In this document: positions 1,548 through 63,800 of the stretch, in pieces
How positions within the stretch are numbered: position 1 is the stretch's first letter
Layout: each line of letters opens with the position of its first letter
NCBI GenBank assembly: GCA_964637355.1
Contig: CAZWVG010000004.1
Span: 1,517 to 65,516, forward strand
Reading direction: 5' to 3'
DNA from: an uncultured Gemmatimonadaceae bacterium
Lineage (GTDB): Bacteria > Gemmatimonadota > Gemmatimonadetes > Gemmatimonadales > Gemmatimonadaceae
Length of the DNA stretch: 64,000 nucleotides
The notes under the pieces: generated by a model
Database searches by the model: none
What the model was told of the DNA's origin: nothing
What the model saw: only the letters and a program-made list of their open reading frames with translations
Program-made: the position numbers and the translations under genes

Positions 1548-2438
1548 ATGACGGATACATCCTTGCGACCTCTCGCCCCTCGAACGATGGCTCCGAACGA
1601 TTCGACCTTCGCGCTCCCCGACGACGCCTGGCTCTCATCGCTCTGCAGCGCGCGCGCGACGTACCAGCTCCCCCTGCGCGCCACGCAACGCGCGGCCGAT
1701 TTCACCGAGTCGGCACTCGATCTCCTCTTTCCGCACTTCGCCAACCAGCTCGACGGCGGGCTCGCGCGCATGCGCGCCGAGGTGACGGGCTTCGCCGAGG
1801 AGTCCGCGACGCTCTTCGCCGACTTCGGGACGGCGTCGAGCGATCGAGCCGCGGCCGAACTGGTGGCTGCGCTCCCAAAGCTCCGCAGCGACCTCATGGC
1901 CGATGCGCAGTTCATCGTCGATTCGGATCCGGCGGCGATGTCGGTCGATGAGGTGATCCTTGCCTATCCCGGCTTCCTCGCCACCGCGAGCTATCGCCTT
2001 GCGCACCTCGTGCGATCGCTCGGCGTTCGGCTCCTCCCGCGCCTCATCACCGAGCACGCGCACCAGCGCACGGGAATCGACATCCATCCCGGCGCCACCA
2101 TCGGCGTCCCGTTCGCCATCGACCACGGGACGGGGATCGTGATCGGCGAGACGGCACACGTCGGCGTGCGGGTGCGCATGTACCAGGGCGTCACGTTAGG
2201 CGCGCTGTCGGTGGAGAAGGCGCTGGCGAGCGCGAAGCGACACCCCACCATCGGCGACGACGCCGTGCTCTACGCGAACGCCACCGTCCTCGGGGGACGA
2301 ACCGTCGTGGGAGCGAAGAGTGTGGTGGGAGGAAACGTCTGGCTCACCCGATCGGTGCCGGACCATACGGTCGTGTACCATCAGCCGATGCAGGAGCGGT
2401 TGAACGAGTCGCCCGAGCTCGAGGTGTTCTACCCCTGA
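1548..2438 (+). CDS. cysE: serine O-acetyltransferase (left-handed beta-helix, hexapeptide repeats)
   Basis: 'GIDIHPGATIGVPFAIDHGTGIVIGETAHVG...IGDDAVLYANATVLGG' is the typical SAT/EpsC hexapeptide core. Confidence 0.85.
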   Translation: MTDTSLRPLAPRTMAPNDSTFALPDDAWLSSLCSARATYQLPLRATQRAADFTESALDLLFPHFANQLDGGLARMRAEVTGFAEESATLFADFGTASSDRAAAELVAALPKLRSDLMADAQFIVDSDPAAMSVDEVILAYPGFLATASYRLAHLVRSLGVRLLPRLITEHAHQRTGIDIHPGATIGVPFAIDHGTGIVIGETAHVGVRVRMYQGVTLGALSVEKALASAKRHPTIGDDAVLYANATVLGGRTVVGAKSVVGGNVWLTRSVPDHTVVYHQPMQERLNESPELEVFYP

Positions 2439-2452
2439 GTCCCCCGGTCATT

Positions 2453-2499
2453 CCCTCAACACTTGATTCAATCAGATGTTGAGGGTATGATCGGGCATG
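2453..2499 (+). promoter_or_regulatory. sigma70-like promoter with an overlapping palindrome upstream of padR; probably a leaderless transcript
   Basis: TTGATT (2463-2468), 17-nt spacer, TATGAT (2486-2491), then 5 nt to the ATG at 2497. A perfect 9-bp inverted repeat, CCCTCAACA (2453-2461) / TGTTGAGGG (2477-2485), brackets the -35 and the spacer. Confidence 0.5.
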
Positions 2500-2847
2500 G
2501 CCCAACCCGAACTCGACCTCCTGCAGGGGACGCTCGACGTCCTCGTCCTCCGCGCCCTGTCGTGGGGGACGATGCACGGCTATGCCGTCGCGCGCTTCAT
2601 TCGTGAGGGTTCCGACGGGAGCTTCCGCATCCTCGACGGGGCGCTCTACACCTCGCTGCACCGCATGGAGGAGCGCGGGTGGATCTCCTCGTCGTGGGGG
2701 CTCTCCGACCGCGGGAAGCGCGCCAAGTTCTACCAACTCACCGCAGCAGGGCGCAAGGCGTTGCGCGCCGAGTCGGCGTCGTGGGAGCAGTACGTCGCCG
2801 CGGTGGCCAAGGTAATGAACGCCGCTCCCACTCCCTCGCCCACCTGA
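2497..2847 (+). CDS. PadR-family transcriptional regulator
   Basis: 'LDVLVLRALSWGTMHGYAVARFI...LYTSLHRMEERGWISS' is a winged-helix PadR signature. The gene lies directly upstream of an ADOP permease, the classic pairing. Confidence 0.9.
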   Translation: MAQPELDLLQGTLDVLVLRALSWGTMHGYAVARFIREGSDGSFRILDGALYTSLHRMEERGWISSSWGLSDRGKRAKFYQLTAAGRKALRAESASWEQYVAAVAKVMNAAPTPSPT

Positions 2848-2864
2848 CGCGCCGTCGCTGACCC

Positions 2865-5576
2865 ATGGACTCCGACTCGCGCCCTCCGTTCTGGCGTCGC
2901 TACCTGCGATTCCTGCGCCCCGACACCGACGCCGACATCGACGACGAGCTGTCGTTTCACCTGGCGGAGCGTATCGAGGCGCTGCGAGCAGACGGCGTGG
3001 ACGATCATGAAGCGCGAACGCGAGCGCTCGCCGAGTTCGGCGATGTGCGCGCCGTGCGCCAGTCGCTGCAGGTGATCGACCGCCGCATGGACCAGCGCCG
3101 TGCGCGTGGCGAGTGGCTGGCGAACGCCATCACTCGCATGCGGCACGCACTGCGCGTCCTGCTTCGTCAACCCGGATTCACCGTCCCCGCGGTGGTCACG
3201 CTCGCGCTCGGCCTCGCCTCGACCGTCGCGATCTACACCCTGCTCGACACGATCGTGTTGCGCGCGCTCCCGTTCCCCCGCGCCGACCGCCTCGTCGCGC
3301 TCTCGTCACCGATGCCCAAACTCGATGACACATGGGGGATCGCGCGGCACCAGCTCTTCTACTACAAGGAGAATGCGCGGTCGATCGAGGACATGGCACT
3401 CTACCGGCGGAACGAGGCCACGCTGACCGGCGATGGTACGACGCAGTATTCGGAGCGCGTGCGCACTGCCGTGGTGAGTGCGGGCATCTTCGACGTCCTC
3501 GGCATCGTCCCCGAGTTCGGGCGCGTGCTTACGCCGGCCGACAATCTCGAGCGCACGCCGGCGAGCGTCGTCCTCTCGCATGCACTCTGGACGCGGCGCT
3601 TCGGCGGCGATCGCACGATCGTCGGGCGCACCATCGACGTCGAGGGGCTCTCGCTGTCGGTCGTTGGGATAGCGCCGCCCACCGCGCAGTTGCCCGAGGG
3701 ACCCGTCGACCTCTGGCTCCCGGACTACGTCGATCCCGCGGCGGCAGCGCAGAACAACCATGTGCGTGCGGCTGTCGCGCTCCTGCGCCCGGGGTACACC
3801 GCCGAGTCGGCGGAGCGCGATATCGCCCCGCTCGTACCGCGCATGGAAGAGGTCTTCCCCTCGGCGTATCCGAATCACTGGATCACCAACTCCGGTTTCC
3901 GCACCGCCGTCGTGCCGCTGCGCGACGACGTGGTGGGGCGTACGGTGATGCGCACGCTCTGGATCCTGCTGGCCGGCGTGCTCTTCGTGCTCGTGGTGGC
4001 GCTGGCGAACGTCGCCAACCTCCTCCTCGTGCGCGCCGACGGGCGGCGGCGCGAGGTGCTGGTGCGATCGGCGTTAGGCGCCCGTCGTGGCGACCTGCTG
4101 GCGTTGCACGTGACCGACGCGGTGGTGGTGACGGTCGTTGCCGGACTCGTGGCCTTCGTGCTCGTCCGTCTCGCGCTCGGCGCGCTTTCGTGGCTCGCGC
4201 CGCAGGGAATCCCGCGGCTCGCCGAGCTGCACGTCGGCCCTGGAACCGCCGCGCTCATGCTGACGCTCTCGCTGGCGCTTGGGCTCGTCCTTGGCGTCCT
4301 GACCGCCCGGGCCACGCGTGGGGAACAGGATCATGCCGCGCTCCGCGATGCGTCGCGTGGGCTCACCCTCACGCGCCGACAGGTGGGCGTGCGCGGGGCG
4401 CTCGTCGTGGCGCAGGTCGCGCTCGCGGTGGTGCTGCTCGCCGGCGCCGGGTTGATGCTGCGCTCCTTCCAGAAGCTGCGCGCGGTAAACCCCGGTTTTG
4501 TGGCTGACGGGGTGACCACCATGGAAGTCGCACTCCCCTCGGCGCGCTACGACGACGTACAGCGGGTGAGTGACTTCCATGAGCAGCTGGTGGCGGCCGT
4601 GCGCGCGATCCCCGGTGTGCAGGACGCAAGCCTCGTAGAACAGCTCCCGCTTACCGGGCGATCGGGGTGCACCGGGGTCTTGACCAACCAGCCCGGTGCA
4701 ACTGGTCGCAACGAGCAGTGCGTGACCACGCTGCAGGTGGCGCCTGGCTACTTCGAGGCGATGCGCATCCCGGTGCGGGGCGCTGCGAGCACATGGGACG
4801 ACCTGCATCGCGCTTCGGCCGGTGCCGTGGTCACCAGCGCACTCGCCGAGGTGTTGTGGCCGGGGGAGAATCCGCTCGGGCGGACGATTCGCTGCTGCAG
4901 CGAAGGGAGCGGGTGGTTCAGGGTGACAGGAGTGGTCGACAAACTGTACGATGCTGGCGTCGACGCGCCACAAATGCAGGCCGTCTTCTTCCCGCTCGTT
5001 CCCGTCCCGGGCGCCGACCTGCAGTGGCTTGCACGCAATGTGAGCCTGGTGGTGCGGGCCCCGGGGCTCGCCCCGGCCGACCTCTTCCCGCTCGTGCAGC
5101 GTGAGGTGGGGCGCCTCGACCCGCAGGTCCCGGTGACCGGCGCGCGAGCGCTCGCCGATGTCGTCGCCGCGTCGATGGCCAATCGCACCTTCACGCTCTA
5201 CCTGCTCGCGGCAGCCGCGGCGATCGCCGTTCTGCTCAGCGCCGTTGGTCTCTACGCCGTGATCTCGTACGTGGTCGGCCATCGACTCGGTGAGATCGGG
5301 ATCCGGATGGCACTCGGTGCGCGGACGACGCAGGTGGCTCGGCTGGTGGTGGGGCAGTCGCTCGCGCTGGCGTTGACTGGCGTGGTCCTGGGCGTCGGCG
5401 GTGCGCTCGCGACGACGCGCGTGCTGGGGGCGCTGCTGTATCAGGTGCAACCGCGCGACCCGCTGGTGCTCGCCGCGGTCTCGGCGATGCTGGTGACAAT
5501 CGCTGTGGTGGCGAGCCTGGCGCCGACATGGCGGGCGGCGCACGTGGATCCGGCGCTGGCGCTCCGGGGAGAATAG
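2865..5576 (+). CDS. ADOP-type ABC transporter permease (MacB-like periplasmic core plus duplicated FtsX domains)
   Basis: 903 aa. The N-terminal 'ELSFHLAERIEAL...EFGDVRAV' leader and two FtsX-like TM bundles are present. The architecture is typical of acidobacterial/gemmatimonad duplicated orphan permeases. Confidence 0.85.
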   Translation: MDSDSRPPFWRRYLRFLRPDTDADIDDELSFHLAERIEALRADGVDDHEARTRALAEFGDVRAVRQSLQVIDRRMDQRRARGEWLANAITRMRHALRVLLRQPGFTVPAVVTLALGLASTVAIYTLLDTIVLRALPFPRADRLVALSSPMPKLDDTWGIARHQLFYYKENARSIEDMALYRRNEATLTGDGTTQYSERVRTAVVSAGIFDVLGIVPEFGRVLTPADNLERTPASVVLSHALWTRRFGGDRTIVGRTIDVEGLSLSVVGIAPPTAQLPEGPVDLWLPDYVDPAAAAQNNHVRAAVALLRPGYTAESAERDIAPLVPRMEEVFPSAYPNHWITNSGFRTAVVPLRDDVVGRTVMRTLWILLAGVLFVLVVALANVANLLLVRADGRRREVLVRSALGARRGDLLALHVTDAVVVTVVAGLVAFVLVRLALGALSWLAPQGIPRLAELHVGPGTAALMLTLSLALGLVLGVLTARATRGEQDHAALRDASRGLTLTRRQVGVRGALVVAQVALAVVLLAGAGLMLRSFQKLRAVNPGFVADGVTTMEVALPSARYDDVQRVSDFHEQLVAAVRAIPGVQDASLVEQLPLTGRSGCTGVLTNQPGATGRNEQCVTTLQVAPGYFEAMRIPVRGAASTWDDLHRASAGAVVTSALAEVLWPGENPLGRTIRCCSEGSGWFRVTGVVDKLYDAGVDAPQMQAVFFPLVPVPGADLQWLARNVSLVVRAPGLAPADLFPLVQREVGRLDPQVPVTGARALADVVAASMANRTFTLYLLAAAAAIAVLLSAVGLYAVISYVVGHRLGEIGIRMALGARTTQVARLVVGQSLALALTGVVLGVGGALATTRVLGALLYQVQPRDPLVLAAVSAMLVTIAVVASLAPTWRAAHVDPALALRGE

Positions 5577-5620: not shown

Positions 5621-8326
5621 CTATTCCACCTCGGCCAGGGCGGCCGCCGAGCGAACCTCTTCGTCTCGCCCGAGGGTTTTCCACTGTTGCAACAGCGCGG
5701 CGAACTGCAGCGCCGGGACTGGGCGAGAGAAGAAATAGCCCTGGCCGAGCGCGCACCCTAACGATTGAAGCCAGGCAAGCTGTTCGCGCGATTCGATCCC
5801 CTCGGCAAGCGTGCGCATCGACAGGCTCTGGCCCATTGCGACGATTGCCCGCGTCACGCCCGCCTGCGACGTGTCTTCCCGCTCCCAGCTCACGAAGCTC
5901 TTGTCGACCTTGAGCACGTCGATGGGGAATCGTCGCAGGTAGGAGAGCGCCGAATATCCCGTGCCGAAGTCGTCGAGCGCAATGCGCACACCAAGCGCGC
6001 GCAGCGCCTGCAGTCGCTCGGCGAGTTCGCCATCGTTGGCGACGAGCACACTTTCGGTCAGCTCGATCGCCAGCACACTCCCATCGACGCCGGCGCCGGC
6101 CAGCGCCGTCGTCACGTCGTCGATCAGTCGAGCGTCGTGGAACTGTCGCGCCGACACGTTGACGGCGACCCGAAAGTGCACCGATGGGTCGGCGAGTTCG
6201 ACAAATCGGCGCGCGTCACGCATCGCGTGCTGCAGCACCACCCGTCCGATCGCGACGATCAGGTCGGTCTCTTCGGCGATGGCGATGAAGCGACCCGGGA
6301 GAACGAGCCCCCGTTCGGGATGGTTCCACCTGACGAGCGCCTCGGCGCCGGTCACCTGCCCGCTTCGCAGGTCGATCACCGGCTGATAGGCGAGCTCGAA
6401 CTCCTCGTGCTCGAGTGCGCGGCGTAACCCCGCCTCGATGTGATGCCGCTCGGCGATCTCCGCGCGCATCGTGCTCGAGAACAATTCGACGCGACTTCGT
6501 CCCGAAGCCTTCGCACCATACATCGCCACGTCGGCGTCGGTGAGCACTTCGTGCGCGTCCTGATGGTCGGCGGCCCACGCAATGCCGATGCTCGCGCGCA
6601 CGGAGACCTCGCGATCGCCCAGGCGCACCGGTGGTTGCAGCGCCTCCTGAATGCGGGCCGCGGCAGCTTCTGCTTCTTCGGGACGCTGCAGATCCTCGAG
6701 CAGGATCGCGAACTCGTCACCGCCGAGGCGCGCGACCGTGTCTTCGCTCCGCAGTGCCCCCTGGAGACGATTGGCAACCGACACGAGCAGCGCATCGCCG
6801 CGCGCATGGCCGAGCGAGTCGTTCACGATCTTGAAGTGATCGAGATCGATGAGGAGTACCGCCACCGCGCCGGCGTGCCGCTGGCGTCGAGCGAGCGCGT
6901 GCGACAAGCGATCGCCAAAGAGGCGACGATTCCCCAGTCCGGTGAGCGGATCACGAAGGGCCTGATCGATCAGCTGCACCTCGAGCGCCTTGCGCTCGGA
7001 GATGTCGCGTCCGTTCACCACCAGACCGCCGATCGACGGTTCATGGAGGAGGTTCGCACCGACCGATTCGACCCATCGCCATTCTCCGCGCGAGTCGCGC
7101 AGCCGGACGACCATCGACTCGCGCGGCGTTTCGCCGTCGAGGAGTCGCTGCATGCGCTTGCACGCTTCGGGCGCATCGTCACGGTGAATCTCCTTCGTGA
7201 TGTCGCGACCGATGAGGAGTTCGGGAGGGATGCCGAGCACGTCGAGGTGCGATGGGCTCGCGTACCGGATCGTGAAATCGCGCCCAATGATCAACAGCAT
7301 GTCCGAGCCATGGCGCACGAGCGCGGCGAGCCGGGCGTCGGATTGGGCGAGGAGGCGTTCCTTCTGGAGCGCCATCACTTCGTGCAGGGAGAGGAGCTGG
7401 CGCGCCAGCACGAGCGTCATCTGCACGCCGAGGGCAACGCTCAGCACGATGGCGGTGCGACGCTCGTCGAGCAGGACGGCCACCAGCAGCAGGGCGTAGC
7501 ACGCCACCACCAGGAAGTACGGGAGCCGCGCGACGCGCGCACGTCGCGACGGCTCCCGTGTCGGGAGGGTCGCGTGGGCGGCGCCGAAGCCGACGGCCGC
7601 CCACGAGCCGTACCACGCTGCGGCGACGAACCAGGGCGACGATTGCGTGACGCTGGATGGAAGCGCGTACCACGCGTCGCCGAAGAGTCCGAAGAGCAAG
7701 GATATGCCCAGGGCCTGCGCCCACACGGGAAGGCCTTGGGTATCGCGGCGTACCCAGAGCAACGCGAGGCCGATCAGCGTCGCCAGGTCCACGAGCGGAG
7801 AGAGAAGGAGCACCGCGTCGCGCCACTCGTGCATCGGACGAACCTCTCCCCCGGCGAAACTCACCGTCGCCACGACCAGCGTCGCCGCCGACGTGGCCAG
7901 GATGGAGGCGTCGAGGATGGTGCGCACGAGCTCCGGCCAACCGCTCGGTGCACGCCATCCGCGAAAGAGACCCACCAGCACCAACACCGCGAACAGGACG
8001 TTGCCGAGATCGGCGATTCCTGAATCGAGTGTGCGTCCAGAGAGCCAGGCGACGTACCACGCGGCGTCGTAGGCGAAGAATCCGACGATCCCGACAAGGA
8101 TCCACCCCCACGTTCCGCTAGGGTCGTACCGTCGGCGTCTCCACCAGGCGCGCACCCCCGCCGCCAGTGTGACGAGCGTGAGCAGCGACGAATGGCCATA
8201 CAACGGGTCGAACACGTCGCGGGGGAGGAGCAACGACGCGAGCGCGCCCAGGATCGCAATGGCGACGCCTGCGCGCGCCACCAGGATCCAACCCCGATCG
8301 GAGGCGTCAGCAGCTGCAACTTGCAT
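5621..8326 (-). CDS. membrane-anchored PAS-GGDEF-EAL cyclic-di-GMP turnover protein
   Basis: Multi-TM N-terminus, a PAS-like segment, 'RLGGDEFAIL' (GGDEF), and 'EALVRW...DDFGTGYS' (EAL). Confidence 0.9.
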   Translation of the reverse strand: MQVAAADASDRGWILVARAGVAIAILGALASLLLPRDVFDPLYGHSSLLTLVTLAAGVRAWWRRRRYDPSGTWGWILVGIVGFFAYDAAWYVAWLSGRTLDSGIADLGNVLFAVLVLVGLFRGWRAPSGWPELVRTILDASILATSAATLVVATVSFAGGEVRPMHEWRDAVLLLSPLVDLATLIGLALLWVRRDTQGLPVWAQALGISLLFGLFGDAWYALPSSVTQSSPWFVAAAWYGSWAAVGFGAAHATLPTREPSRRARVARLPYFLVVACYALLLVAVLLDERRTAIVLSVALGVQMTLVLARQLLSLHEVMALQKERLLAQSDARLAALVRHGSDMLLIIGRDFTIRYASPSHLDVLGIPPELLIGRDITKEIHRDDAPEACKRMQRLLDGETPRESMVVRLRDSRGEWRWVESVGANLLHEPSIGGLVVNGRDISERKALEVQLIDQALRDPLTGLGNRRLFGDRLSHALARRQRHAGAVAVLLIDLDHFKIVNDSLGHARGDALLVSVANRLQGALRSEDTVARLGGDEFAILLEDLQRPEEAEAAAARIQEALQPPVRLGDREVSVRASIGIAWAADHQDAHEVLTDADVAMYGAKASGRSRVELFSSTMRAEIAERHHIEAGLRRALEHEEFELAYQPVIDLRSGQVTGAEALVRWNHPERGLVLPGRFIAIAEETDLIVAIGRVVLQHAMRDARRFVELADPSVHFRVAVNVSARQFHDARLIDDVTTALAGAGVDGSVLAIELTESVLVANDGELAERLQALRALGVRIALDDFGTGYSALSYLRRFPIDVLKVDKSFVSWEREDTSQAGVTRAIVAMGQSLSMRTLAEGIESREQLAWLQSLGCALGQGYFFSRPVPALQFAALLQQWKTLGRDEEVRSAAALAEVE

Positions 8327-8455: not shown

Positions 8456-9622
8456 ATGACCGAATCGCCCGCACCTTCGAGCCTTGATCGCCGCGCCTTC
8501 CTTGCCAGCTCCGTGGCTATTGCCGCGTCTGGGCGGGGGGCGCTCTCTCGTATCGCGCTCCCCAATCACGGCGTAGGCGCGGCCGATGCGCCAGCCGCGA
8601 GCTGGCCCGGCTACGACAAAGCCACCGTCATCGACTTCCTCTCCAGCCCCGGCTACTTCAACTACCCGCTCAACCCTCCGCTCGACGATGCGATGGTTGC
8701 GCACGCCGTGCATTCGGGAATCACCGCCTGCAACCTCACCGTCAGCAGCAGCGGTTTCGCCGACACGGTCGAGAACATCGCGCGCTGGATGACGCGTATC
8801 GAGCAGCGACCGAAGGCATTCCGGCAGGTGCGCACCGTCGCCGACATCGCCGACGCCAAGGCGACGGGGCGGCTCGGCGTGGTGCTCGGCTTTCAGGACA
8901 CGGTCCCCTTCGAGGGGCGCATCGAAAACGTCGAGATCTTCCGCAACCTTGGCGTCCGCGTCACGCAACTCACCTACAACGTGCGCAACCTCGTGGGTGA
9001 CGGCTGTCTCGAACCGGCAAACGGCGGTTTGTCGCGCTTCGGTCGCTCCGTCGTGGAACGAATGAACGAGGTGGGGATGCTGGTCGACCTGAGTCACTGC
9101 GGACAGAAGACCACCGCCGAGGGGATCGCGGTATCGAAGCTCCCGGTGTCGATCACGCATAGCGGGTGCAATGCCGTCGCGCGCCACCCGCGCTCCAAGG
9201 ACGACGCCGAATTGCGCGCGCTGTCGCAGAAGGGCGGGGTGATCGGCATCTACCTCATGCCCTTCCTCTCACCCGGGCGCGTCCCCACGCGCAACGACGT
9301 CCTCGACCACATCGAGCACGCCATCAACGTGTGCGGTGAAGACCATGTAGGTATCGGGAGCGACCTCTCCACGACGCCGATCGATGGCTCGGGGGACTAC
9401 GTGACGCGGCACCGCGAGTTCGTTGCCGGCCGCATCGCCAAGGGGATCGCCGCGCCTAACGAAGATCCCGACATCCTGTTCACCGTACCGGAGCTCAACA
9501 ACGACCGGCGCCTGGAGCTGATCGCGGAAGGGATGGCGGGGCGAGGGCATGGGAGTGCGCGGATCGCGAAGGTGATCGGGGGGAATTGGCTGCGGCTGTT
9601 TGGGGAGACGTGGGTGGCGTGA
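8456..9622 (+). CDS. membrane dipeptidase, peptidase family M19, with a Tat signal
   Basis: The internal ATG at 8456 gives 'MTESPAPSSLDRRAFLASSVAIAA' (twin-arginine signal). 'MLVDLSHCG' and 'HVGIGSD' are renal-dipeptidase-like motifs. Confidence 0.8.
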   Translation: MTESPAPSSLDRRAFLASSVAIAASGRGALSRIALPNHGVGAADAPAASWPGYDKATVIDFLSSPGYFNYPLNPPLDDAMVAHAVHSGITACNLTVSSSGFADTVENIARWMTRIEQRPKAFRQVRTVADIADAKATGRLGVVLGFQDTVPFEGRIENVEIFRNLGVRVTQLTYNVRNLVGDGCLEPANGGLSRFGRSVVERMNEVGMLVDLSHCGQKTTAEGIAVSKLPVSITHSGCNAVARHPRSKDDAELRALSQKGGVIGIYLMPFLSPGRVPTRNDVLDHIEHAINVCGEDHVGIGSDLSTTPIDGSGDYVTRHREFVAGRIAKGIAAPNEDPDILFTVPELNNDRRLELIAEGMAGRGHGSARIAKVIGGNWLRLFGETWVA

Positions 9623-26210: not shown

Positions 26211-29492
<3,282 letters not shown>

Positions 29493-47313: not shown

Positions 47314-47327
47314 CTTGTATCCCCGCT

Positions 47328-51632: not shown

Positions 51633-51717
51633 CAATAGTCTGCGAGAATTTCGGCGTCGTTGAGCGCTGACTGACTCGAGTGGCTCGCTGAGACGTCGAT
51701 CAACTTTCGACCAACTA

Positions 51718-53380: not shown

Positions 53381-54007
53381 ATGAAGGTGTGTCCATACTG
53401 CGCCGAAGACATCCAAGATGGCGCAATCATCTGCAAGCACTGCCGCTCTTCGCTGAAGGACTCGAATCAACGCAGCGGTGTAGCGCTGAGCTCGGCGATC
53501 TCGCCCAAAGCACCAGTTACGGTGAGGACACCGCTGGTTCTGGCCCTCGCACTGGCCGCGGTCGTCGCACTCGTTGTGATCATCGCGCGCCCCGCGCCGG
53601 ACGCTTCGCCGCCGCCCGCTGCGGTGATGACGGCGACTCCGCCGCGGCCTCCGAAAGTGTGGAATCTCGCCTCCATGTCGGACTTCGACGTAAGCGCCGG
53701 CAAGATCCTGAGTTTGGAGTGGGATGTCCCCGTCGACCAGCCGAACTGCCGCCTCACTGGACGCGTCGAGGTTACCGAGGGTGGCAGCAAAGACGTGCAG
53801 GTCTTCCTCACGTCGCGCGACGAGTTCACCAACCTCGAGAATGGGCACAACGCCAAGTCGTACCTGGCCACTGACAGAACCACGGTCGCGACGTTGGACG
53901 TGCGGGTGAATGAGCCGGGAGCGAAGGTGCTCGCGATCAGCAATGCCTTTTCGCTGCTCACGTCCAAGCACGTACAGATGCGGGATGTGAAGGCGGTCTG
54001 TACCTAA
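53381..54007 (+). CDS. zinc-ribbon / single-TM / extracytoplasmic beta-sandwich protein
   Basis: GGAGGA lies 4 nt upstream of the ATG at 53381. 'CPYCAEDIQDGAIICKHC' is followed by the TM helix 'LVLALALAAVVALVVII'. Confidence 0.6.
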   Translation: MKVCPYCAEDIQDGAIICKHCRSSLKDSNQRSGVALSSAISPKAPVTVRTPLVLALALAAVVALVVIIARPAPDASPPPAAVMTATPPRPPKVWNLASMSDFDVSAGKILSLEWDVPVDQPNCRLTGRVEVTEGGSKDVQVFLTSRDEFTNLENGHNAKSYLATDRTTVATLDVRVNEPGAKVLAISNAFSLLTSKHVQMRDVKAVCT

Positions 54008-54463
54008 CGCGGGGAACGCGCACCGTCGAGACGGCGCGCGCTCGCGTGCGATACTACCCTTGAGCGTCCTCAGGAGCTCATCCCGCACTCTGACCGCGGC
54101 GACATTCTCCGGCCTTCAGCAGGTGGCTCGGCTGCAAGGCGGAAAGCGGAGAATCGCCTTGACGGTTTAATTCAACCGCAGAAGCCGGCAACTCGTCGGA
54201 CGCGTCGATGCGACGCGAGTTTATCCGATTGCGATAAGATCGCAAAACTCGATCAAACTCACCGGCTCCCGATTCAGTCGGTTGCGGTTCGGAGCATCAC
54301 CTACCCGCCGCGCCCGGCGTGCTCAGCGCGCGCGGAGGAAGACTCGATGCCGGCTTGTGGCGCGAGCGGCAACGTCGTGGCGAGCGGATCGCACCTTCTT
54401 TTGCGAGTTCGTGTATCTCCGGGTTGCGTCCGTCAGTCCGACCAGCCCTCGCCGCCCCCGCCC

Positions 54464-57751: not shown

Positions 57752-60742
57752 ATGCAACGACGATCTACGGAGTCCTCGCGCTCCATTCTCTTGCGTGCAG
57801 TAGGCTCGCTGTTGCTGCTCGTTCTGGCTGCGTGTGCAGACGAAGCGAATACGGTGGCTGGAGTATCGGCCAACTCGGCGGTGGTCGCCGGCGGCTCGTC
57901 GCTGCAGGTGGCCGCGCTTCCCGTGCTCGAGCGAGACGGAGTCACCTTCACGGTATCACCGGTGATCGAACTCCGTGACGAGCGTGGGAATCTGCTCGTG
58001 GGGACACCGGCATCGATCGAGGTCGGTCTCGCGACGGGGACGGGAAGGCTCGACGGAACACGGATCGTTGGTACCACGACAGGGCGAGCCGTCTTCGACA
58101 ACCTGCGCTTCCTCGGGACCGGCCCGGTGGTGCTGCGCTTCAATGCGAAGGGCTTCGGAGGCGTCAAGAGCGACACGTTCTACGTCGCCGCCCGGACGAT
58201 CTCTCTCGATCCGTCCAGCATGCAATTGATATCGGATTCGGCGGCGATGGCCGACGGAAGGTACGCCTTCACGGTGCAGGGAACGCCACCGACCATCGAC
58301 TCGGGAACAGTGGTGGTTCTCCCGGACATCGGGAGGGCGCGTCGCGTCCTTGCGGTGCAGTCGTCCGGCGGCGTGTTGACACTGCGCACGGGAGACGTCG
58401 GCGTCGAAGAGCTGGGGTTTGTTGGGGCGTACGCCGATTCGGTCGATCTCTCGAGCAGTAGCGCGCCGAGCAGAATCAGAAGCATCGCTGGCGTACCGTC
58501 AGCCTCCGCTGCGCCTCTGTTTCCAACTGTTAGCATCAACGGGCTCGGTCTTGGCTTCGGAAGTTCCGCGACGGCGACCGCTTCGCTGCAGATGACGTTT
58601 GCCGCGTACATGAAGCGGGCGATCGCCTTCGATAAGTTCGGTCGACTCGTTTCCGTCGACATGTCGCTCGGCGGGACCGTAACGCTGCGGGGGCAGCTGG
58701 ACGTTACAGCAACTGCCGCGACGAAGCAGTCCGTGAGTGTGCCGGTCATTCCCGCGACCGTCTGCTTTCCAGCATCAATTGGTCCGGTTGTCGGATGCCT
58801 CGCGCCGAGCGTGACGTTCAACGCCAGTTTGACGACAACGGGTGCGATGACGCGATCGGAATTGGTCACCGCTACTGGGAACCTGGCGGGCGGGATGCAC
58901 TACGACGCGCAGTCCGGCGTCACGATCACGCAAAGTGCAAGTGCTGCGCTCACCGCCTCGAAACTCGTGAGCGCGTCGGTCGATCAGACCATCCAGCTCT
59001 CTCTGACTCCCGAGATGCAGTGGCGCCTGTTTGGATTGCCAGCAGGACCGTTTGTGGCGGCGGGTCCGTTTATTCGCGTGACTGAGACCGTGAGCTCCAC
59101 GCCTCCCACATTCAGCCGGGTCTGCGATTGGGGATTGGAGCTGAAGGGTGGAGTGAAGCTGCAGCTAACACCGCTTCTGAATCTCTCGGTGTCTTCGTCC
59201 AAGAGCGCTCCTTTCGGCACCTTCAGCTGCCCGACACAAACGCCGCCGCCTCCGCCTAACGCGAGCCTCGTCGCGTACTACCCCTTCGACGGCAACGCGA
59301 ACGACGCCTCTGGCAACGGATTCGACGCGACATTCAACAACGCACAACTCGCGGCCGGCGTCTCCGGGCAGACCAACACCGCATATCACTTCAACGGCGC
59401 GAGCGAGATTCGCCTCCCCGCAACTCCAACCAACAGCTTGACTGCAGGAACCGTATCGGTGTGGGTCCGGCTGGATGACACGAACGCGCAGTACAACATC
59501 TTCGCGAAGGTGCCGTCCGCAGGTACCTATCCGATGCGCGTCCAGTTCGGCGGAGCGGCCAGCGGCGCGTACGCTCCGATCGAACGGTGGTGCTTCATCG
59601 TGAATACGCCGCCGCCAGGAGACTGCACCTCACCGGCGTACTCGTTCACGCCGACCTCCTTCCTGTACGACTTCACGAGCTGGCATCTCTACACGTTCAC
59701 GTGGACCACGTCGGGGCGGCAAATCTATCGAGATGGATTCCTCATTACCTCGATCGCGGCTGTCGCGAGCTCTCCCGCATCGGGTGAGCTTGTCCTGAGC
59801 CCGCCCTCCACATCCGGTACCGGAGTGCCGGAGCGACTCAAGGGCTCACTCGATGATCTCCGCATCTACAACTACGCGCTCTCGGCGAGTGAAGTGGCTG
59901 CGCTCTATTCGGCTCCTCCCGGTCCCGCACCCGTCAGCGGAGGACACATCGCCTTCATGAGCGTTCAGCCGTCGGGCGCGGAAGAGATCTTCGCGATGGA
60001 CCCAAGCGGCGGACAGCGGACGCAACTGACATTCCGGGGACTGCACTCCGAGAGCCCGCAGTGGTCGCCCGATGGCTCTCAAATCGCTTATCAGGGCGAT
60101 GTGACTTCGCGACAGAACTTCGAGATACACGTCATGAACGCGGACGGATCGAACGACCACGTCGTGTCGCCCGACCCGTCAGACGATGCGCAGCCATTCT
60201 GGTCTCCCGATGGCAAGCAGATCGTCTTCCAGAGCCGGCGCGCCGTCGGTGCGTGTGCAGGGCAGGGAGCGGAGTACAAGATCTACGTCATGGATGTGAA
60301 CGGGGCCAACCTCACCTGTCTCGGATTCCAGGGCGTACAGAGCGAGACGCCGAGCTTCTCGCCCGACGGTTCGAAGATCACCTACTTTGTGAACCTAGGT
60401 CCTGGACAGGCGGAGATCTGGGTCATGAACGCGAATGGCAGCAACAAGGTCAGGCTCACGTCGGGGGCGCAGGACTTCTTTCCCCGCTGGTCGCCCGACG
60501 GGACGCAGATCCTCTTCGAGCGGAATGCGGCGTCCATCTGCGTGATGTACGCCAACGGATCTGGCGTGAACTGCGTGGCGTCCGGTCGCTATCCCTCGTG
60601 GTCGCCGAGCAGTGGGCACATTGTTTTCACGAACCTGGTCGGCGGCGTCGAGCAGATATTCCGGGTCGCGAGAACGGGAGGGGCAGTCGTCCGAGTGGCG
60701 ACCACCAGTACTCGTGATCTCGAACCGGTCTGGACGCACTAG
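57752..60742 (+). CDS. large lipoprotein: Ig-like domains + LamG/concanavalin-like domain + C-terminal PD40 (TolB-like) propeller
   Basis: Lipobox 'LAAC'. 'LVAYYPFDGNANDASGNG...LDDLRIYNYALSASEV' is a LamG signature. Repeated 'SPQWSPDGSQIAY / FWSPDGKQIVF / SFSPDGSKITY / RWSPDGTQILF' blades. Confidence 0.8.
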   Translation: MQRRSTESSRSILLRAVGSLLLLVLAACADEANTVAGVSANSAVVAGGSSLQVAALPVLERDGVTFTVSPVIELRDERGNLLVGTPASIEVGLATGTGRLDGTRIVGTTTGRAVFDNLRFLGTGPVVLRFNAKGFGGVKSDTFYVAARTISLDPSSMQLISDSAAMADGRYAFTVQGTPPTIDSGTVVVLPDIGRARRVLAVQSSGGVLTLRTGDVGVEELGFVGAYADSVDLSSSSAPSRIRSIAGVPSASAAPLFPTVSINGLGLGFGSSATATASLQMTFAAYMKRAIAFDKFGRLVSVDMSLGGTVTLRGQLDVTATAATKQSVSVPVIPATVCFPASIGPVVGCLAPSVTFNASLTTTGAMTRSELVTATGNLAGGMHYDAQSGVTITQSASAALTASKLVSASVDQTIQLSLTPEMQWRLFGLPAGPFVAAGPFIRVTETVSSTPPTFSRVCDWGLELKGGVKLQLTPLLNLSVSSSKSAPFGTFSCPTQTPPPPPNASLVAYYPFDGNANDASGNGFDATFNNAQLAAGVSGQTNTAYHFNGASEIRLPATPTNSLTAGTVSVWVRLDDTNAQYNIFAKVPSAGTYPMRVQFGGAASGAYAPIERWCFIVNTPPPGDCTSPAYSFTPTSFLYDFTSWHLYTFTWTTSGRQIYRDGFLITSIAAVASSPASGELVLSPPSTSGTGVPERLKGSLDDLRIYNYALSASEVAALYSAPPGPAPVSGGHIAFMSVQPSGAEEIFAMDPSGGQRTQLTFRGLHSESPQWSPDGSQIAYQGDVTSRQNFEIHVMNADGSNDHVVSPDPSDDAQPFWSPDGKQIVFQSRRAVGACAGQGAEYKIYVMDVNGANLTCLGFQGVQSETPSFSPDGSKITYFVNLGPGQAEIWVMNANGSNKVRLTSGAQDFFPRWSPDGTQILFERNAASICVMYANGSGVNCVASGRYPSWSPSSGHIVFTNLVGGVEQIFRVARTGGAVVRVATTSTRDLEPVWTH

Positions 60743-60758
60743 ACGATGCGGAGTCGAT

Positions 60759-60786
60759 GCGCCCCATCCGATCTCGGATGGGGCGC
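60759..60786. terminator. strong GC-rich hairpin between convergent genes (putative bidirectional terminator)
   Basis: GCGCCCCATCCGA (60759-60771), tc, TCGGATGGGGCGC (60774-60786) are perfect 13-nt arms. There is no U-tract on either side. Confidence 0.55.
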
Positions 60787-60815
60787 ACGATGGCCGGCCT
60801 GACGAGGAAGTTCTG

Positions 60816-63800
60816 TTAGAAGCTCTTGGCGGCCGCCCAATCCACGTCGCGCAGGACCCCTTCGAGCACCCGCACACGTCCGACCAGCATTCGCGTGTCG
60901 ACCGAGTTGCCGCCGAGGAGAATCCGCATCTCGGCACCTGGGCGGACCGTGGCGGGCAAGATGCCCACGACCCGTCCGTCGAGCGCCAGTCCGCAACGGC
61001 CATCGGGCAAAATCTGTACGCGAACGGTGTGCCAATTCCCGGAAAGCCAGTCGTCGGTGGGCACATGCAGTAATATCCCGCGTCGAGACGTACTGAAGGT
61101 CATGCTCCCCTCTCCACTGCCGGTGCGCGACTCCTCCGGGTACCCGAAGTCGCACACGAAGGAACGGACACGAAAGTCGGGAACCGCGTTCGCTCCGGCA
61201 TTAAAGCTGAAGGGCAACGTATCGACGTCCTGCCGAATGCCGACGCCGAAGATCTGCCACTGCGCGCGCGTCACCGGAGTCGATACCTCGAGTTCGACTG
61301 CGAGACCATGGCGGCCGTCGAACGTGGGCCTCGATAGCGCCGAGCTCGAGAAGCGTCCCTCCCCGTTGTTGAAGAACGCTCGGCGACCAGTGGAAGCCTC
61401 CACCACCACAGGCAGTGGCTTGCCGAACCGCATCCAGCGATCCAACCATGACGCGCTCCACGTCTCATCGAGCCTAACAACGGCGGAATCCGTCGTGACA
61501 CGAAGACGGATGGAATCGCGCGTGACGCCGCCCACGTCCGCCCGCACGACCAGCTCCGACGACGCTCCGCGGGCGACGACGATGCCGGTGAGTGAATCGA
61601 CCGTCCCGGCAGCGGTATCTTCGAGCGACCACCGAATGCTGCCGCGAAACGGGAGCACCCGGTCGCGGCTGTCGATCAGCGAAGCGGAGAGGCGGACAGG
61701 CACACCGACAGGTGCAATACGCGTCGCGACCGTGTCGATGACGACGCGCGAGGGAGCGGCGGTCGCGGCACTCGCGAGCCACACGGCACCGAGCAATCGT
61801 CCGGCACTCTCGGGCACGCCAATTTCGCGGATGAGCGCCGGGGCCCCGAGGGGAAAGACTGCCGGCTTCGGCGGTCCGTCGGCCGTGAGGGCGCATACGC
61901 AGAAGACCCAACGTCCGTCTGAACTCACGCTGGTGAGTCCTCCGGCGTTCTCGGTGACGATGACCGACTCGCCGGTCGACCATTGCCAGACGCGAAGGCG
62001 ATTGAACCACCCTTCGGCTTCCTGCGCAACGATCTGTTCGTCGTCGATCCATCCGAGGGCGGCGAGACCAAACCCGGGAGCGCCTTCACGGCACTGCAGC
62101 TGGCGACTGGCGATGTCGATGACGCACAGCTGGTTCCGCGAGCGCCCCCAATTCGATCGCCCAGAGGCGAGATAGCGCCCGCTGGGTGACCACTTTGGCG
62201 GCCCGTCACTGGCAGGTCCGTCCGTAAGGCGGGTGACGGTGTTGTCCGCCAAGCGCACCATCGCGATATCGTAGTGGCTGAGGGTATCCCACCGAGCGGT
62301 CGAGAACGCGACGTATTCGCCGTTAGGCGATACGCTCGGTGATTCATTGTCGCCAGGTGCGGGCGCGATCGCGGTCGACACGCCCCCACGATCGTGTTGC
62401 ACGACCTCGATGTCGCCGTCTTCTCCGACGACTTCCTCGACGAACAGCGCGCTCCGACGCGGATCCCACGTGGCGGTGAAGGCATTCGTGGGCTTGAGTC
62501 TGAACGCTGCGCCCTCCCGCCACGGCGCCGACGCGAGCGGACGATACGGTGTCCAATCCTCCTCGCGTAGCGCCACTTCGCGGAATGCGCCGTTTTCCAA
62601 CGAGTCCGCGAAAATTAGCGCCAGGATGGCGTCGGGCGATGCGGGCGCAGGCTGCGCGATGGTCGCGTAGAGGAGGAGCGAGGTGGTCAAACCTCCAGCT
62701 GCAAGCGCCCCCGCCCGCCGCGCCCGCGACACCAACCCCATCCGCCACGTCAACGGCGCTCCCGACACCATCTCGGTCACATCGTCACCGCTCGCATCGG
62801 GCCCGAGCAGTTCGCGCGCCAGCTCCCGCAAACTCCGGCGATCTCCTGCAGCAAACTGTTGGCCGGCAAACTTCCTGAACAGCGCTCGGCACCGCGACCG
62901 CTCGCCACTCATCCGCAACAGCCGGCTCGCCCGCTGCGCCGACGCCTCGGTGATCGGCTCCATCTCCATCAACGCCCGCCCCACATCGGCTGCGCCCTTG
63001 TGGAAACTCTCCGGGCTCAGGAGCGACCGCACCTCCTCGAGAATCTCGTCGTGCGCCAGCGACCAATCGTCGTCCAACTGCACGACAAGCCCGCGCGCCT
63101 CGAGCGAGGCGAGTCGCCCGGCGGTGTCGGCGCTATTGGTGCCCGATGCGGCGATGAGCGCCCGCATCGGCAGCGGCGTGCCGGCGATCGCCAGGAGCGT
63201 GAGAAGCCAGCTGTCACCGCGCTCCATCCCGTCGAGCCGAGCCCGCAACACATTCCCGTTGTAGAGCGCCTCGCGCAGCTCACCCTGGCGCTCGGCGACC
63301 CAGCTCCCCCCCGCTCGCCGCAGCAGGGCGCGCTGTTCGAGCAGCTGCAACAACTCCAACGTGAGCAGCGGCGACCCCTTGGCGGCGGTGCACACCGCTT
63401 CGGCGAAGTGCTGCGCCCACTCCTCGTCAGGCAGTTCGGCGATGCTCAGGATCAACTCATCGACATTCGCGACGTCGAGCACCGGGAGCTCCACATGACG
63501 CGTGGTGCCGTGCGACATGGCCGGCACGCGCCGCGCCTCGGGTCGAGCGGTTGTCACGAGGAGGATCTTGCTGTCGGCGAGTCGCTCGATGAGCGCGGTG
63601 ATCAGCACGAGCGACGCCTCGTCCCACCAATGCAGGTCGTCGAGCAACACGGCGACGGGATGCTCGAACGAGATCGCCGTCGCGAGTTCGGCAATGGCGA
63701 CGGTGCGCGCCCGCATGACATCCTCGGGCGGGGCATGGCGCGGCGGCGCCTCGAAATAGGTGGAGAGCGACGGATTGAGCGCCACGAGGGTGCCGGCGGT

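Follow-up and report, generated by a model that had tools for sequence, protein, structure and literature searches.

GCCTAACG, a lineage-specific, hyper-abundant DNA word in a group of Gemmatimonadaceae and a candidate DNA-level self tag

Why does one non-palindromic octamer, GCCTAACG (reverse complement CGTTAGGC), recur throughout a stretch of bacterial DNA, and what keeps it there? The stretch, here called the window, comprises 64,000 nt of an uncultured Gemmatimonadaceae bacterium (assembly GCA_964637355.1, contig CAZWVG010000004.1, positions 1,517 to 65,516, forward strand). The source organism is a soil bacterium. The initial annotation counted 21 exact copies in the 64-kb window, and our recount gives the same number, with 10 copies reading GCCTAACG on the plus strand and 11 on the minus strand. 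Nineteen of the 21 coordinates were correct; the copy placed at 17639 starts at 17638, and that placed at 51823 starts at 51813. The exact copies are:

2194..2201, minus: antisense, gene 1548-2438 (+); coding strand ACG-TTA-GGC (Thr-Leu-Gly)
4072..4079, minus: antisense, MacB/FtsX permease gene 2865-5576 (+); GCG-TTA-GGC (Ala-Leu-Gly)
9454..9461, plus: sense, M19 dipeptidase gene 8372-9622 (+); GCG-CCT-AAC-GAA (Ala-Pro-Asn-Glu)
13815..13822, minus: sense, AraC-type regulator gene 13783-14691 (-); GAG-CCT-AAC-GTG
14989..14996, plus: antisense, flavin monooxygenase-like gene 14639-15775 (-); CGC-GTT-AGG-CAC (Arg-Val-Arg-His)
16672..16679, minus: antisense, CoA-transferase III gene 15972-17222 (+); GCC-GTT-AGG-CAG
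17638..17645, minus: antisense, beta-lactamase-family gene 17219-18499 (+); CCC-GTT-AGG-CGC
18793..18800, minus: antisense, CitMHS transporter gene 18501-19790 (+); GCG-TTA-GGC
24163..24170, plus: sense, erythromycin-esterase-family gene 22481-24469 (+); CTG-CCT-AAC-GGT
25236..25243, plus: antisense, beta-lactamase-family gene 24504-25904 (-); CCG-TTA-GGC
26297..26304, plus: sense, tricorn protease gene 25938-29492 (+); CAG-CCT-AAC-GCG; kept in the L087 and L088 orthologues
27923..27930, plus: sense, same tricorn protease gene; CCG-CCT-AAC-GTC; kept in L088, missing in L087 (CCC-ACC)
30118..30125, plus: sense, S9 peptidase gene 29528-31675 (+); TCG-CCT-AAC-GGG
35187..35194, minus: intergenic, between the aminopeptidase P gene (33511-34989, -) and the OMP gene (35219-35860, -)
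42233..42240, plus: defence island; antisense, Schlafen/AlbA_2 gene 41952-43382 (-); GTC-GTT-AGG-CGT
43521..43528, minus: defence island; sense, GmrSD/HEC-05-like gene 43360-45324 (-); TGG-CCT-AAC-GGC
44875..44882, minus: defence island; sense, same GmrSD/HEC-05-like gene; CGC-CTA-ACG (Arg-Leu-Thr)
48903..48910, minus: defence island; sense, type I hsdM 47328-49748 (-); GGC-CTA-ACG
51813..51820, plus: sense, gene 51718-53214 (+); GAG-CCT-AAC-GCG
59254..59261, plus: sense, PD40/LamG gene 57752-60742 (+); CCG-CCT-AAC-GCG
62321..62328, minus: sense, AAA_16/PD40 gene 60816-63998 (-); TCG-CCT-AAC-GGC

In terms of placement, 20 of the 21 copies are genic and one, at 35187, is not. The 12 sense copies read xxG-CCT-AAC-G (Pro-Asn, 10 copies) or GC-CTA-ACG (Leu-Thr, 2), and the 8 antisense copies CG-TTA-GGC (Leu-Gly, 4) or C-GTT-AGG-C (Val-Arg, 4), which bears out the earlier observation that all four stop-free frames are used and extends it to both senses. 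The rare codons reported at the word are also real: the called genes of the window contain 15 TTA codons in total, and 4 of these fall within it. Conservation had been said to end with the 8 nt; this is correct for the remaining flanks but not for position -1, where 15 of the 21 copies have a pyrimidine.

The strong over-representation claimed at the outset persists under Markov, dinucleotide and codon-aware nulls. Dinucleotide shuffles of the window yield a mean of 1.23 copies (maximum 5), and Markov models of orders 1-3 predict 0.5-1.15; by Markov z-score (z = 21-28), GCCTAACG ranks first among all window octamers. The strictest null applied, a synonymous-codon shuffle that preserves every protein and codon usage, gives a mean of 2.0 copies (sd 1.0, maximum 7 in 300 shuffles) against 21 observed, and the enrichment is therefore at least 10-fold. 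That half of the genic copies (10/20) encode Pro-Asn and that several host genes contain PD40 repeats might suggest an artefact, produced by codon usage, by recurrent peptide motifs, by paralogous domains or by a mobile repeat. This reading, to which we give next to no credence, is refuted by the synonymous-codon shuffle, by the unconserved flanks and by homologues in other lineages, which encode the same peptides without the word. The use of four frames and both senses also speaks against it, as does the dispersal of GCCTAACG, whereas the high-scoring words checked in loci L032, L085 and L076 are tandem arrays.

GCCTAACG is a lineage-specific, hyper-abundant DNA word, present at approximately 10-50 times expectation in the window bacterium, its relatives (one of them culturable) and some of their viruses. 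It is the top octamer also in the Gemmatimonadaceae loci L010, L046, L065, L079 and L082, and L087 and L088 hold 10 copies each in about 23 kb. Its density in seven other Gemmatimonadaceae genomes is 0.33-1.6 per kb; the window and seven loci together contain 121 copies in 212 kb (2-5 expected), as against 2 copies in 245 kb of other Gemmatimonadota and no enrichment in 75 other genome loci or 70 metagenome loci (about 2 Mb). In cultured Gemmatirosa kalamazoonensis KBS708, plasmid 2 carries 701 copies in 1.04 Mb (362 in a 550-kb sample, 6-17 expected) and a plasmid 1 sample carries 29 in 50 kb; every replicon looked at has the word. Phage contigs L216/L302 (terminase, DNA polymerase) contain 9 copies in 16.8 kb, and contig L231 (tape-measure and tail genes) carries it as well. 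Such bona fide phage contigs match the host in density, whereas phage relatives in other hosts lack the word. The defence island of the window (about 36.3-50.7 kb) had been credited with five copies and holds four, the copy at 35187 falling outside it; it is nevertheless about as dense in the word as the remainder (0.28 vs 0.34 per kb), as had been stated. The earlier view of the island as a long-term resident or an arrival from the same lineage agrees with these data; even this lineage's phages carry the word.

Across carriers, CCTAAC forms a near-invariant core; Gemmatirosa is strict about the first G, A is tolerated in place of the last G, and position -1 prefers a pyrimidine. The 550-kb Gemmatirosa plasmid sample has 426 CCTAAC hexamers, of which 422 fall within GCCTAACN and 362 belong to the exact word. 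At -1, T and C are equally common in Gemmatirosa, and the window favours C; L010/L046 frequently have A at +1, and some genomes tolerate ACCTAACG. One-mismatch variants show little enrichment in the window or the Gemmatirosa plasmid sample; as a class they are not enriched in the window (34 observed vs 45 expected), the exception being the last-base variants GCCTAACH (5 vs 1.5). GCCTAACA is the sole variant enriched in every carrier genome. The edge-mismatch relatives listed by the initial annotation all exist, including the two in which TAA is a true stop codon:

5756..5763, plus: variant CCCTAACG
19850..19857, minus: variant GCCTAACC
26854..26861, minus: variant GCCTAACC
32337..32344, minus: variant GCCTAACT
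51627..51634, plus: variant GCCTAACA; TAA is the stop codon of gene 51057-51632
54002..54009, plus: variant ACCTAACG; TAA is the stop codon of gene 53276-54007
61472..61479, plus: variant GCCTAACA

Comparison with word-free homologues reveals that the word arises both via rare synonymous codons at conserved peptides and via amino-acid replacement; at tricorn protease site 26297, for example, word-free homologues have Pro-Thr/Ser/Asp/Ala. Typically, two or three changes, not one, separate homologous sequence from the word. In 12 of 17 directed comparisons, set against a baseline of 10%, the orthologous position retains the word, and this in orthologues whose third-position identity is only 54-61% and whose synonymous sites are nearly saturated. 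Together, the codon-aware null, the four frames and both senses, the modes of origin, the positional conservation and the lineage specificity support the original proposal of a force that acts on the DNA word itself, and not on peptides, codons or a mobile repeat.

One such force, also proposed initially, would be lineage-specific biased repair or mutation of the very-short-patch type, which turns near-matches into the word wherever DNA replicates in these cells. Lineage specificity, presence on all DNA residing in the lineage (phages included) and the near absence of one-mismatch neighbours in Gemmatirosa, seen in the hexamer counts above, are as expected from it. However, the neighbour spectrum lends no support, as the neighbours predicted to be depleted by a C-to-T model are equally absent in control genomes; moreover, the positions are conserved rather than replenished at random sites, and two or three changes are required. 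On the plasmid, 28% of copies lie in non-coding-like sequence, roughly double the 15% of random positions, and 5 of 6 copies in phage L216 are intergenic, which argues for placement by cost, not by mutation. We know of no repair system with 8-9 bp asymmetric specificity, and we consider this explanation quite improbable.

The absence of orientation bias noted at first holds more widely: copies in the eight chromosomal loci split 61:60 between the strands, and those on the 1.04-Mb plasmid 366:335. A 75:25 skew is rejected (log10 BF -4.9 and -25, respectively), as are skews of 65% or more. The balance within the loci and over the whole 1-Mb plasmid rejects replichore-oriented functions. Copies are spaced slightly more evenly than a Poisson process predicts (CV 0.908 vs 0.999 ± 0.038), with no word-free deserts across the 1-Mb plasmid. 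Adjacent copies favour a shared orientation (399 vs 301); close inverted pairs are rare (14 among 701 copies), with no terminator-like pairs as in Neisseria.

These data bear on a Chi-type self tag that would act after entry, the word attenuating a helicase-nuclease (RecBCD/AddAB-like) or other surveillance enzyme, or switching it to recombination, such that DNA surviving in the cells (chromosomes, megaplasmids, islands, phages) is selected or driven to carry the word in both orientations. A non-palindromic 8-mer at a Chi-like density of one per 0.7-3 kb, the lack of deserts on the plasmid and the host-level density in real phage contigs, but not in relatives from other hosts, are consistent with this notion, as is the intergenic bias in L216, which would arise if selection for the word's presence kept coding costs minimal. 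Phages relying on host recombination are reportedly enriched in host Chi, a result ascribed to Bobay et al. The replication-oriented skew that is, to our knowledge, a signature of all characterised Chi sites is nonetheless absent; the word relies on rare codons and imposes amino-acid replacements, whereas E. coli Chi consists of frequent codons; and an enrichment of 20-58-fold over Markov expectations is far above known Chi. We regard a Chi-type role as unlikely.

Of similarly low probability, in our estimation, is a HIP1-like word, bound by a chromosome-structuring protein or modified by an m5C methyltransferase and maintained by purifying selection at numerous sites that serve nucleoid organisation or a global role related to it. 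In its scale of over-representation the word matches HIP1 (15-300-fold), and like HIP1 it is conserved at orthologous sites (Xu et al., PMC5861425); the slightly more even spacing, the shared orientation of neighbouring copies and the presence on all replicons looked at also fit. Against it, the word is not palindromic, selection at thousands of individual sites strong enough to impose rare codons and residue changes would be hard to sustain without drive, and host nucleoid sites would seem of little use to a phage that has its own polymerase. In addition, the published SMRT methylome of the carrier KBS708 found only RGATCY, ATGCAC and CCAGN7TCA (PMC3974934), so the word carries no m6A or m4C there, which narrows the earlier suggestion of a methylation motif to a possible m5C mark.

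The likeliest reading, which we hold tentatively and with slightly less than even confidence, is that YGCCTAACG is a DNA-level self tag of a Gemmatimonadaceae group, kept by drive or selection and most probably serving as a DNA uptake sequence. We infer the link to DNA uptake and, with it, natural competence of the carriers. A putative natural-transformation receptor would bind word-bearing double-stranded DNA in either orientation, and fragments with the word would be preferentially taken up and recombine into the chromosome; word-creating mutations would thereby be over-transmitted and word-destroying ones under-transmitted, a molecular drive. With time the word would accumulate on both strands until it occurs about once every 0.7-3 kb, settling at least cost in rare synonymous codons, residues under little constraint, stop codons and spacers. 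An AT-containing word in DNA of 66-73% G+C, being rare in unrelated genomes, would suit a discriminating tag. The known uptake sequences USS and DUS are likewise located at poorly conserved residues, affect peptide composition and reach thousands of copies (Findlay & Redfield, PMC2817400).

Several observations count against uptake. Uptake sequences are reportedly missing from genes without homologues in relatives (PMC2817400), whereas the word reaches host density both in the defence island and in genuine phage contigs. While 35-65% of USS/DUS fall in ORFs (PMC2817400), the window, 20 of whose 21 copies are genic, has no intergenic excess. Terminator-like inverted pairs are absent, one-mismatch variants are barely enriched, and our literature search found no natural transformation reported for the phylum. 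If the word is an uptake sequence, it would be the first outside Proteobacteria.

Among known systems, KOPS/SRS and other architecture-imparting sequences are, like the word, over-represented asymmetric octamers, but they are strongly polarised toward dif, whereas both orientations of the word are equally frequent in single loci and over a whole 1-Mb replicon. Chi (GCTGGTGG in E. coli) and other RecBCD/AddAB hotspots, which are 5-8-mers, share with it a non-palindromic, taxon-specific, over-represented sequence at about one per few kb and enrichment in some phages. Chi sites follow the direction of replication and consist of common codons; the word is unskewed, made of rare codons and far more enriched. 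HIP1 (GCGATCGC, cyanobacteria) is likewise a hyper-abundant octamer, genic in several frames and conserved at orthologous sites (PMC5861425), and a 2024 preprint ties it to natural-transformation efficiency (10.1101/2024.09.10.611283). It is, however, a palindrome methylated by orphan methyltransferases, whereas the word is asymmetric and free of m6A or m4C in the KBS708 methylome. DUS (GCCGTCTGAA and dialects, Neisseriaceae), read by the minor pilin ComP, resembles the word as a lineage-wide tag common to several genera. The word's small between-species flank differences (-1, +1 and ACCTAACG tolerance) recall the DUS dialects, which are said to differ slightly between species at flanking positions. 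DUS often form terminators as inverted pairs, an arrangement from which the word departs. DUS are also mostly intergenic (34.5% in ORFs; PMC2817400), whereas the word is mostly genic. USS (AAGTGCGGT core, Pasteurellaceae) differs in sequence and phylum, and the word has no AT-rich flanking consensus, little enrichment of one-mismatch variants, no intergenic excess in the window, and host density in phage contigs and the defence island. Both are short, non-palindromic, dispersed words that number in the hundreds to thousands, occupy both strands at roughly one copy per kb and keep their positions between related species; both have family-level specificity and are genic in particular frames, at poorly conserved residues, with altered peptide composition (PMC2817400). 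Overall, the word looks most like the "self" tags by which a few bacteria recognise their own environmental DNA during uptake.

The window contains 21 copies of the octamer GCCTAACG/CGTTAGGC, of which 10 read on the + strand and 11 on the − strand. This recount agrees with the initial annotation, all but two of whose copy coordinates were also accurate (17639 should read 17638, and 51823 should read 51813). Dinucleotide-preserving shuffles of the window contain a mean of 1.23 copies (maximum 5), and Markov chains of order 1–3 predict 0.5–1.15 copies; by the latter measure no other octamer in the window is as over-represented as this word (z of 21–28). For a codon-aware null, synonymous codons of 42 window genes, called by GC3 and Pfam, were permuted within genes or window-wide, leaving the proteins and the codon usage unchanged, including the codons contributed by the word itself; this gave a mean of 2.0 copies (sd 1.0, maximum 7 in 300 shuffles). 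The over-representation first noted by eye thus holds under all three kinds of null (21 copies against 0.5–2.0 expected). The codon shuffle (2.0 versus 21) rejects a codon or peptide artefact, and the enrichment is neither below about 2-fold nor the product of repeated peptides, the two outcomes that the initial annotation had named as counting against its claim.

Twenty of the 21 copies are genic and one is intergenic, which leaves the window without an intergenic excess, and the gene calls agree with the earlier statement that the genic copies use all four stop-free frames. Ten read xxG-CCT-AAC-G (Pro-Asn), two read GC-CTA-ACG (Leu-Thr), and the antisense copies are divided between CG-TTA-GGC (Leu-Gly; four copies) and C-GTT-AGG-C (Val-Arg; four copies). 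Across all called window genes, 4 of the 15 TTA codons lie inside the word. The flanks (±25 nt) hold no information apart from a pyrimidine at −1, which extends the word to YGCCTAACG; the earlier view that conservation ends at 8 nt is right for the flanks and misses this base. One-mismatch neighbors in the window are not enriched as a class, changes of the last base excepted. Alignments of 21, 80, and 362 copies likewise contain no information outside −1 to +8, and these uninformative flanks reject a mobile repeat. In L032, L085, and L076, three unrelated loci, the high-scoring words that were inspected are tandem arrays, and this word is dispersed. Its abundance is not due to chance, codon usage, peptide repeats, or mobile repeats.

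The distribution of the word was followed in 80 tricorn-containing loci of GTDB species representatives, among the matches listed, to which L087 and L088, closer relatives, were added through a separate search for contigs encoding the tricorn protein (window 25938–29492, + strand), and in metagenome loci and the plasmids of Gemmatirosa kalamazoonensis KBS708.

Copies of the word in the compared sequences
L010, Gemmatimonadaceae MAG: 13 copies in 8.3 kb
L046, Gemmatimonadaceae MAG: 34 copies in 23.3 kb
L065, Gemmatimonadaceae MAG: 15 copies in 23.5 kb
L079, Gemmatimonadaceae MAG: 8 copies in 23.2 kb
L082, Gemmatimonadetes MAG: 10 copies in 23.2 kb
L087 (GCA_016713015.1) and L088: 10 copies each in about 23 kb
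Remaining 75 tricorn-containing genome loci among the matches listed: 0–2 copies each, background
70 metagenome loci, 716 kb: at most 2 copies per locus, no enrichment
G. kalamazoonensis KBS708 plasmid 2: 701 copies in 1,040,503 bp (0.67 per kb)
KBS708 plasmid 1 sample: 29 copies in 50 kb

The word is the top octamer in L010, L046, L065, L079, L082, and Gemmatirosa, and its density varies between carrier species from 0.33 to 1.6 per kb. The eight carrier loci, window included, together hold 121 copies in 212 kb versus 2–5 expected, and non-carrier Gemmatimonadota hold 2 copies in 245 kb. The 75 background loci include ∼18 other Gemmatimonadota as well as Acidobacteriota and Bacteroidota; over genomes and metagenomes combined, the word is at background in ∼145 non-carrier loci. 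Metagenome contigs matched with the tricorn protein are neither close relatives nor carriers. The best named relatives of the tricorn protease are from Gemmatimonadetes MAGs (77%) and Gemmatirosa (63%), and the gene tree built to examine carrier monophyly has intermixed paralogues and is therefore uninformative on that point. One window protein has exact copies on JGI and Logan metagenome contigs. Six loci (L001–L006) are 99.9–100% identical to the window and thus offer no informative SNPs.

Plasmid 2 of KBS708, a cultured type strain, was put together in full from PLSDB. A 550-kb sample of it contains 362 copies versus 6–17 expected; of the 426 CCTAAC hexamers in this sample, 422 are part of GCCTAACN. 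The first G shows no variation, 307 of the 362 copies are preceded by T or C at −1, and the sole enriched variant is GCCTAACA (45 versus 1.8 expected). The plasmid record (NZ_CP007130.1) has the same ∼2.55-kb sequence at both ends (1–2555 and 1037950–1040503), probably an untrimmed assembly overlap of a circular record, and two copies of the word are consequently counted twice.

A literature search on the literal word returned only primers and the Caenorhabditis elegans telomere repeat, and no publication was found that joins the word with Gemmatimonadota, describes competence in them, or suggests that the phylum has uptake sequences. The telomere repeat in question is TTAGGC, and the tolerated variant GCCTAACA also falls within the conserved 5′ part of the 16S rRNA that many Gram-negative species share; both resemblances account for spurious literature matches and are probably coincidental.

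The codon alignment of the tricorn genes reveals how copies originate. At a conserved Arg-Leu-Thr, carriers have CGC-CTA-ACG and others CGG-CTC-ACC; at a Leu-Gly, carriers have TTA-GGC and others CTC-GGC. The protein itself is altered at some sites: a Pro-Asn of the window is Pro-Thr, Pro-Ser, Pro-Asp, or Pro-Ala in every word-free homologue, and a conserved WSPDG has become WSPNG in L065. At columns 1578–1585, in the peptide x-Leu-Gly-Ala-Asp, the Leu is encoded by TTA, a very rare codon, in L010, L065, L079, L082, and the window and in 0 of 14 word-free homologues; this TTA yields the exact word or GCCTAACA, and the window reads CCCTAACA, as ATG-TTA-GGG. The five carriers either inherited it from a common ancestor or acquired it convergently in response to one and the same pressure.

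Conservation in orthologues, a check proposed with the original observation, gave a positive result. Among the window, L087, and L088, in which third-position identity at identical residues is 54–61%, the word is kept in 12 of 17 directed comparisons versus a 10% baseline for arbitrary 8-mers, and four of seven distinct word positions are common to at least two species; between paralogues or over greater distances the positions differ. The conserved positions and the cost-sensitive placement of copies both speak against biased repair as the source of the word, and we consider that explanation very improbable.

No orientation bias is evident by strand or by transcription, as had been concluded from the window. 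The strand counts are 61:60 in the eight chromosomal loci and 366:335 on plasmid 2, and the log10 Bayes factors for a 75:25 skew, −4.9 (chromosomal loci) and −25 (plasmid bins), rule such a skew out. These counts also reject a replichore-polarized motif such as classical Chi or KOPS. The best bipartition of plasmid 2 by word orientation is ∼56:44 (P = 0.04), and its GC skew is weak; neighboring copies have the same orientation in 399 cases versus 301 opposite, which would be explained by frame preferences within operons. Sense and antisense copies stand at 58:49 for the window group and at ∼38:62 for Gemmatirosa, and this lack of a consistent transcription polarity makes a role at the RNA level unlikely.

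Spacing on plasmid 2 is slightly more even than under random placement (CV of 0.908 versus 0.999 ± 0.038), gaps of 100–500 nt between copies are depleted, and word deserts do not exceed chance expectation. In Gemmatirosa, 28% of copies are in sequence without codon periodicity, versus 15% of random positions, and ∼3% occupy stop-containing frames. Close inverted pairs number only 14 among the 701 copies, and a repeat and IS depletion test found the plasmid almost repeat-free. Two short tandem arrays (∼108118–108170 and 697547–697600), with units of 12 nt (GCCTAACGCGAC) and 15 nt (GCCTAACGGCGGGAT), each contain the word; a like 12-nt doublet is present in the tape-measure gene of phage contig L231 (6604 and 6616) and in L205.

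G. kalamazoonensis KBS708 (ATCC BAA-2150) is culturable, and its SMRT methylome contains only RGATCY, ATGCAC, and CCAGN7TCA, each >99% modified (PMC3974934). Since several hundred copies per Mb would be visible in such data, the word carries no m6A or m4C and is rejected as a site of either modification; m5C is invisible to that method. An m5C site, or a structural or protein-binding site, is what a reading modeled on the cyanobacterial word HIP1 would propose. We regard this as unlikely, and it may in the end converge with an uptake function, as HIP1 has recently been tied to transformation efficiency (10.1101/2024.09.10.611283).

At ∼36.3–50.7 kb the window has a type I R-M locus into which candidate defense genes are inserted; these lie between and beside the R-M subunit genes (36310–50657).

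Genes of the defense island (window coordinates)
38126–38833, YgjP-like candidate defense gene
38830–41967, hsdR of the type I R-M system
41952–43382, Schlafen/AlbA_2 candidate defense gene with wHTH
43360–45324, GmrSD/HEC-05-like candidate defense gene
45335–46063, PDC-S44 candidate defense gene
46060–47337, hsdS of the type I R-M system
47328–49748, hsdM of the type I R-M system
49797–50657, PDC-S14/DUF4357 candidate defense gene

An adjoining pair of UDG-like (36310–37056) and HNH (37067–38014) genes has no PADLOC match, and a gene for a putative Uma2-family (PF05685) endonuclease (31742–32320) lies just outside the island. Type I recognition sites are bipartite, and the word is accordingly rejected as the site of the window's own R-M system. 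The island has about the same word density as the window average, as first reported, with four copies rather than five.

Phage contigs with the word were found by an IMG/VR scan for close direct word pairs, which returned chiefly chance matches and four high-G+C contigs with dispersed copies. The densities of 0.4–1.2 copies per kb in phage contigs L216/L302, L231, L229, and L244 are subject to the ascertainment bias of that scan. The 16.8 kb of L216/L302, with genes for a terminase and a DNA polymerase, contain 9 copies; five of the six that fall in the 10-kb L216 part are intergenic. One short intergenic spacer of L216 (IMGVR_UViG_3300020577_002214, 3700–3820) has two copies 23 nt apart and the near-copy CGTTAGGT; a perfect inverted repeat of 11 bp (GCCGATCCGCC...GGCGGATCGGC) overlaps the second copy. 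L231, whose genes include those for tail proteins and a tape-measure protein, carries the word as well. The mobile element L229 (IMGVR_UViG_3300044812_000039) encodes a ParB-like protein and has seven copies, three of which (1159, 2144, and 3942) supply the TAA stop of consecutive genes as GCC-TAA-CGA, so that the stop-containing frame is in use at gene ends. Thirty-one high-G+C phage relatives, picked regardless of the word, have 0–1 copies each, which argues that the word tracks the host lineage and not the phage lineage.

These phage data fit somewhat better with a Chi-like tag that acts after DNA entry, as any DNA surviving in these cells would need it. In its classical form such a tag is at odds with the absent strand skew and with the rare codons of which the word is made, and we give it a low probability. 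Among the functions suggested by the initial annotation, the replichore-oriented motif is dismissed by the strand counts and the m6A/m4C site by the SMRT data, repair is disfavored, and an uptake-like sequence appears the most likely. The word is asymmetric, hyper-abundant, lineage-wide, without strand skew, and spaced slightly more evenly than at random; in genes it occupies cheap positions, where it overrides codon preference and sometimes the residue, and it is conserved between related species. For these reasons it fits an uptake sequence. Uptake sequences in general are explained, by common consent, through molecular drive, in which biased uptake is followed by recombination, and thousands of sites can thereby persist without strong selection on each. 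By analogy, the word may have been spread in the same way, and we tentatively favor this as the most likely mechanism. Three findings count against it: the defense island and the phages are as word-dense as the host, an intergenic excess is absent in the window, and one-mismatch variants are nearly absent. With slightly more reserve, we suggest that this group of Gemmatimonadaceae could be naturally transformable and that YGCCTAACG might be an independently arisen DNA uptake sequence, co-opted by the phages and megaplasmids of the lineage.

To our knowledge, only two families, both proteobacterial, are established as recognizing their own DNA by sequence during uptake. An uptake function would make this the first DNA uptake sequence outside the Proteobacteria and would predict natural competence in Gemmatimonadota, a route toward genetic tools for a phylum that is abundant yet little studied in soil and wastewater. 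It bears on the long-standing questions of how self tags originate and spread and what the similar cyanobacterial HIP1 does. An independent example in another phylum would provide a third system for weighing drive against selection, with a simple 8–9-bp word, species densities of 0.33 to 1.6 per kb, and a cultured carrier with a finished genome, KBS708, in which the idea is directly testable. Since phage contigs carry the word and their relatives are without it, it can also serve as a marker that assigns metagenomic contigs, plasmids, and phages to the host lineage.

In terms of known systems, REP and MITE elements are conserved beyond their core and mostly intergenic, whereas this word is mostly genic. 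Chi is co-directional with replication, whereas here a 75:25 skew is rejected. HIP1 is palindromic and the target of an orphan methyltransferase, whereas GCCTAACG differs from its reverse complement CGTTAGGC and is absent from the KBS708 SMRT motifs (PMC3974934), m5C being unseen by that method; HIP1 and the word are alike in conservation at orthologous sites beyond neutral (12/17 versus 10%). USS and DUS, the uptake sequences of Pasteurellaceae and Neisseriaceae, are expected to be scarce in mobile or recently acquired DNA such as prophages and islands, unlike the word, which is about at the window average in the island and at 0.4–1.2 per kb in phage contigs. Their intergenic excess and terminator-like inverted pairs compare with 28% versus 15% and 14 pairs among 701 copies on the plasmid and 1 of 21 in the window. 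The word resembles them in its dispersed copies above composition and codon expectation, with 701 on plasmid 2 versus hundreds to thousands (1,471, 765, and 1,892 in the study of Findlay and Redfield; PMC2817400), in lineage restriction, being common to carriers and at background in ∼145 loci, and in equal orientations without replication or transcription polarity. USS and DUS also favor poorly conserved residues and affect tripeptide frequencies (PMC2817400), and the word corresponds in its cheap genic positions, its peptide changes, and its conservation among relatives. Provisionally, we view it as a lineage-specific, hyper-abundant DNA word whose combination of features matches that of the DNA uptake sequences, the family to which it may belong.
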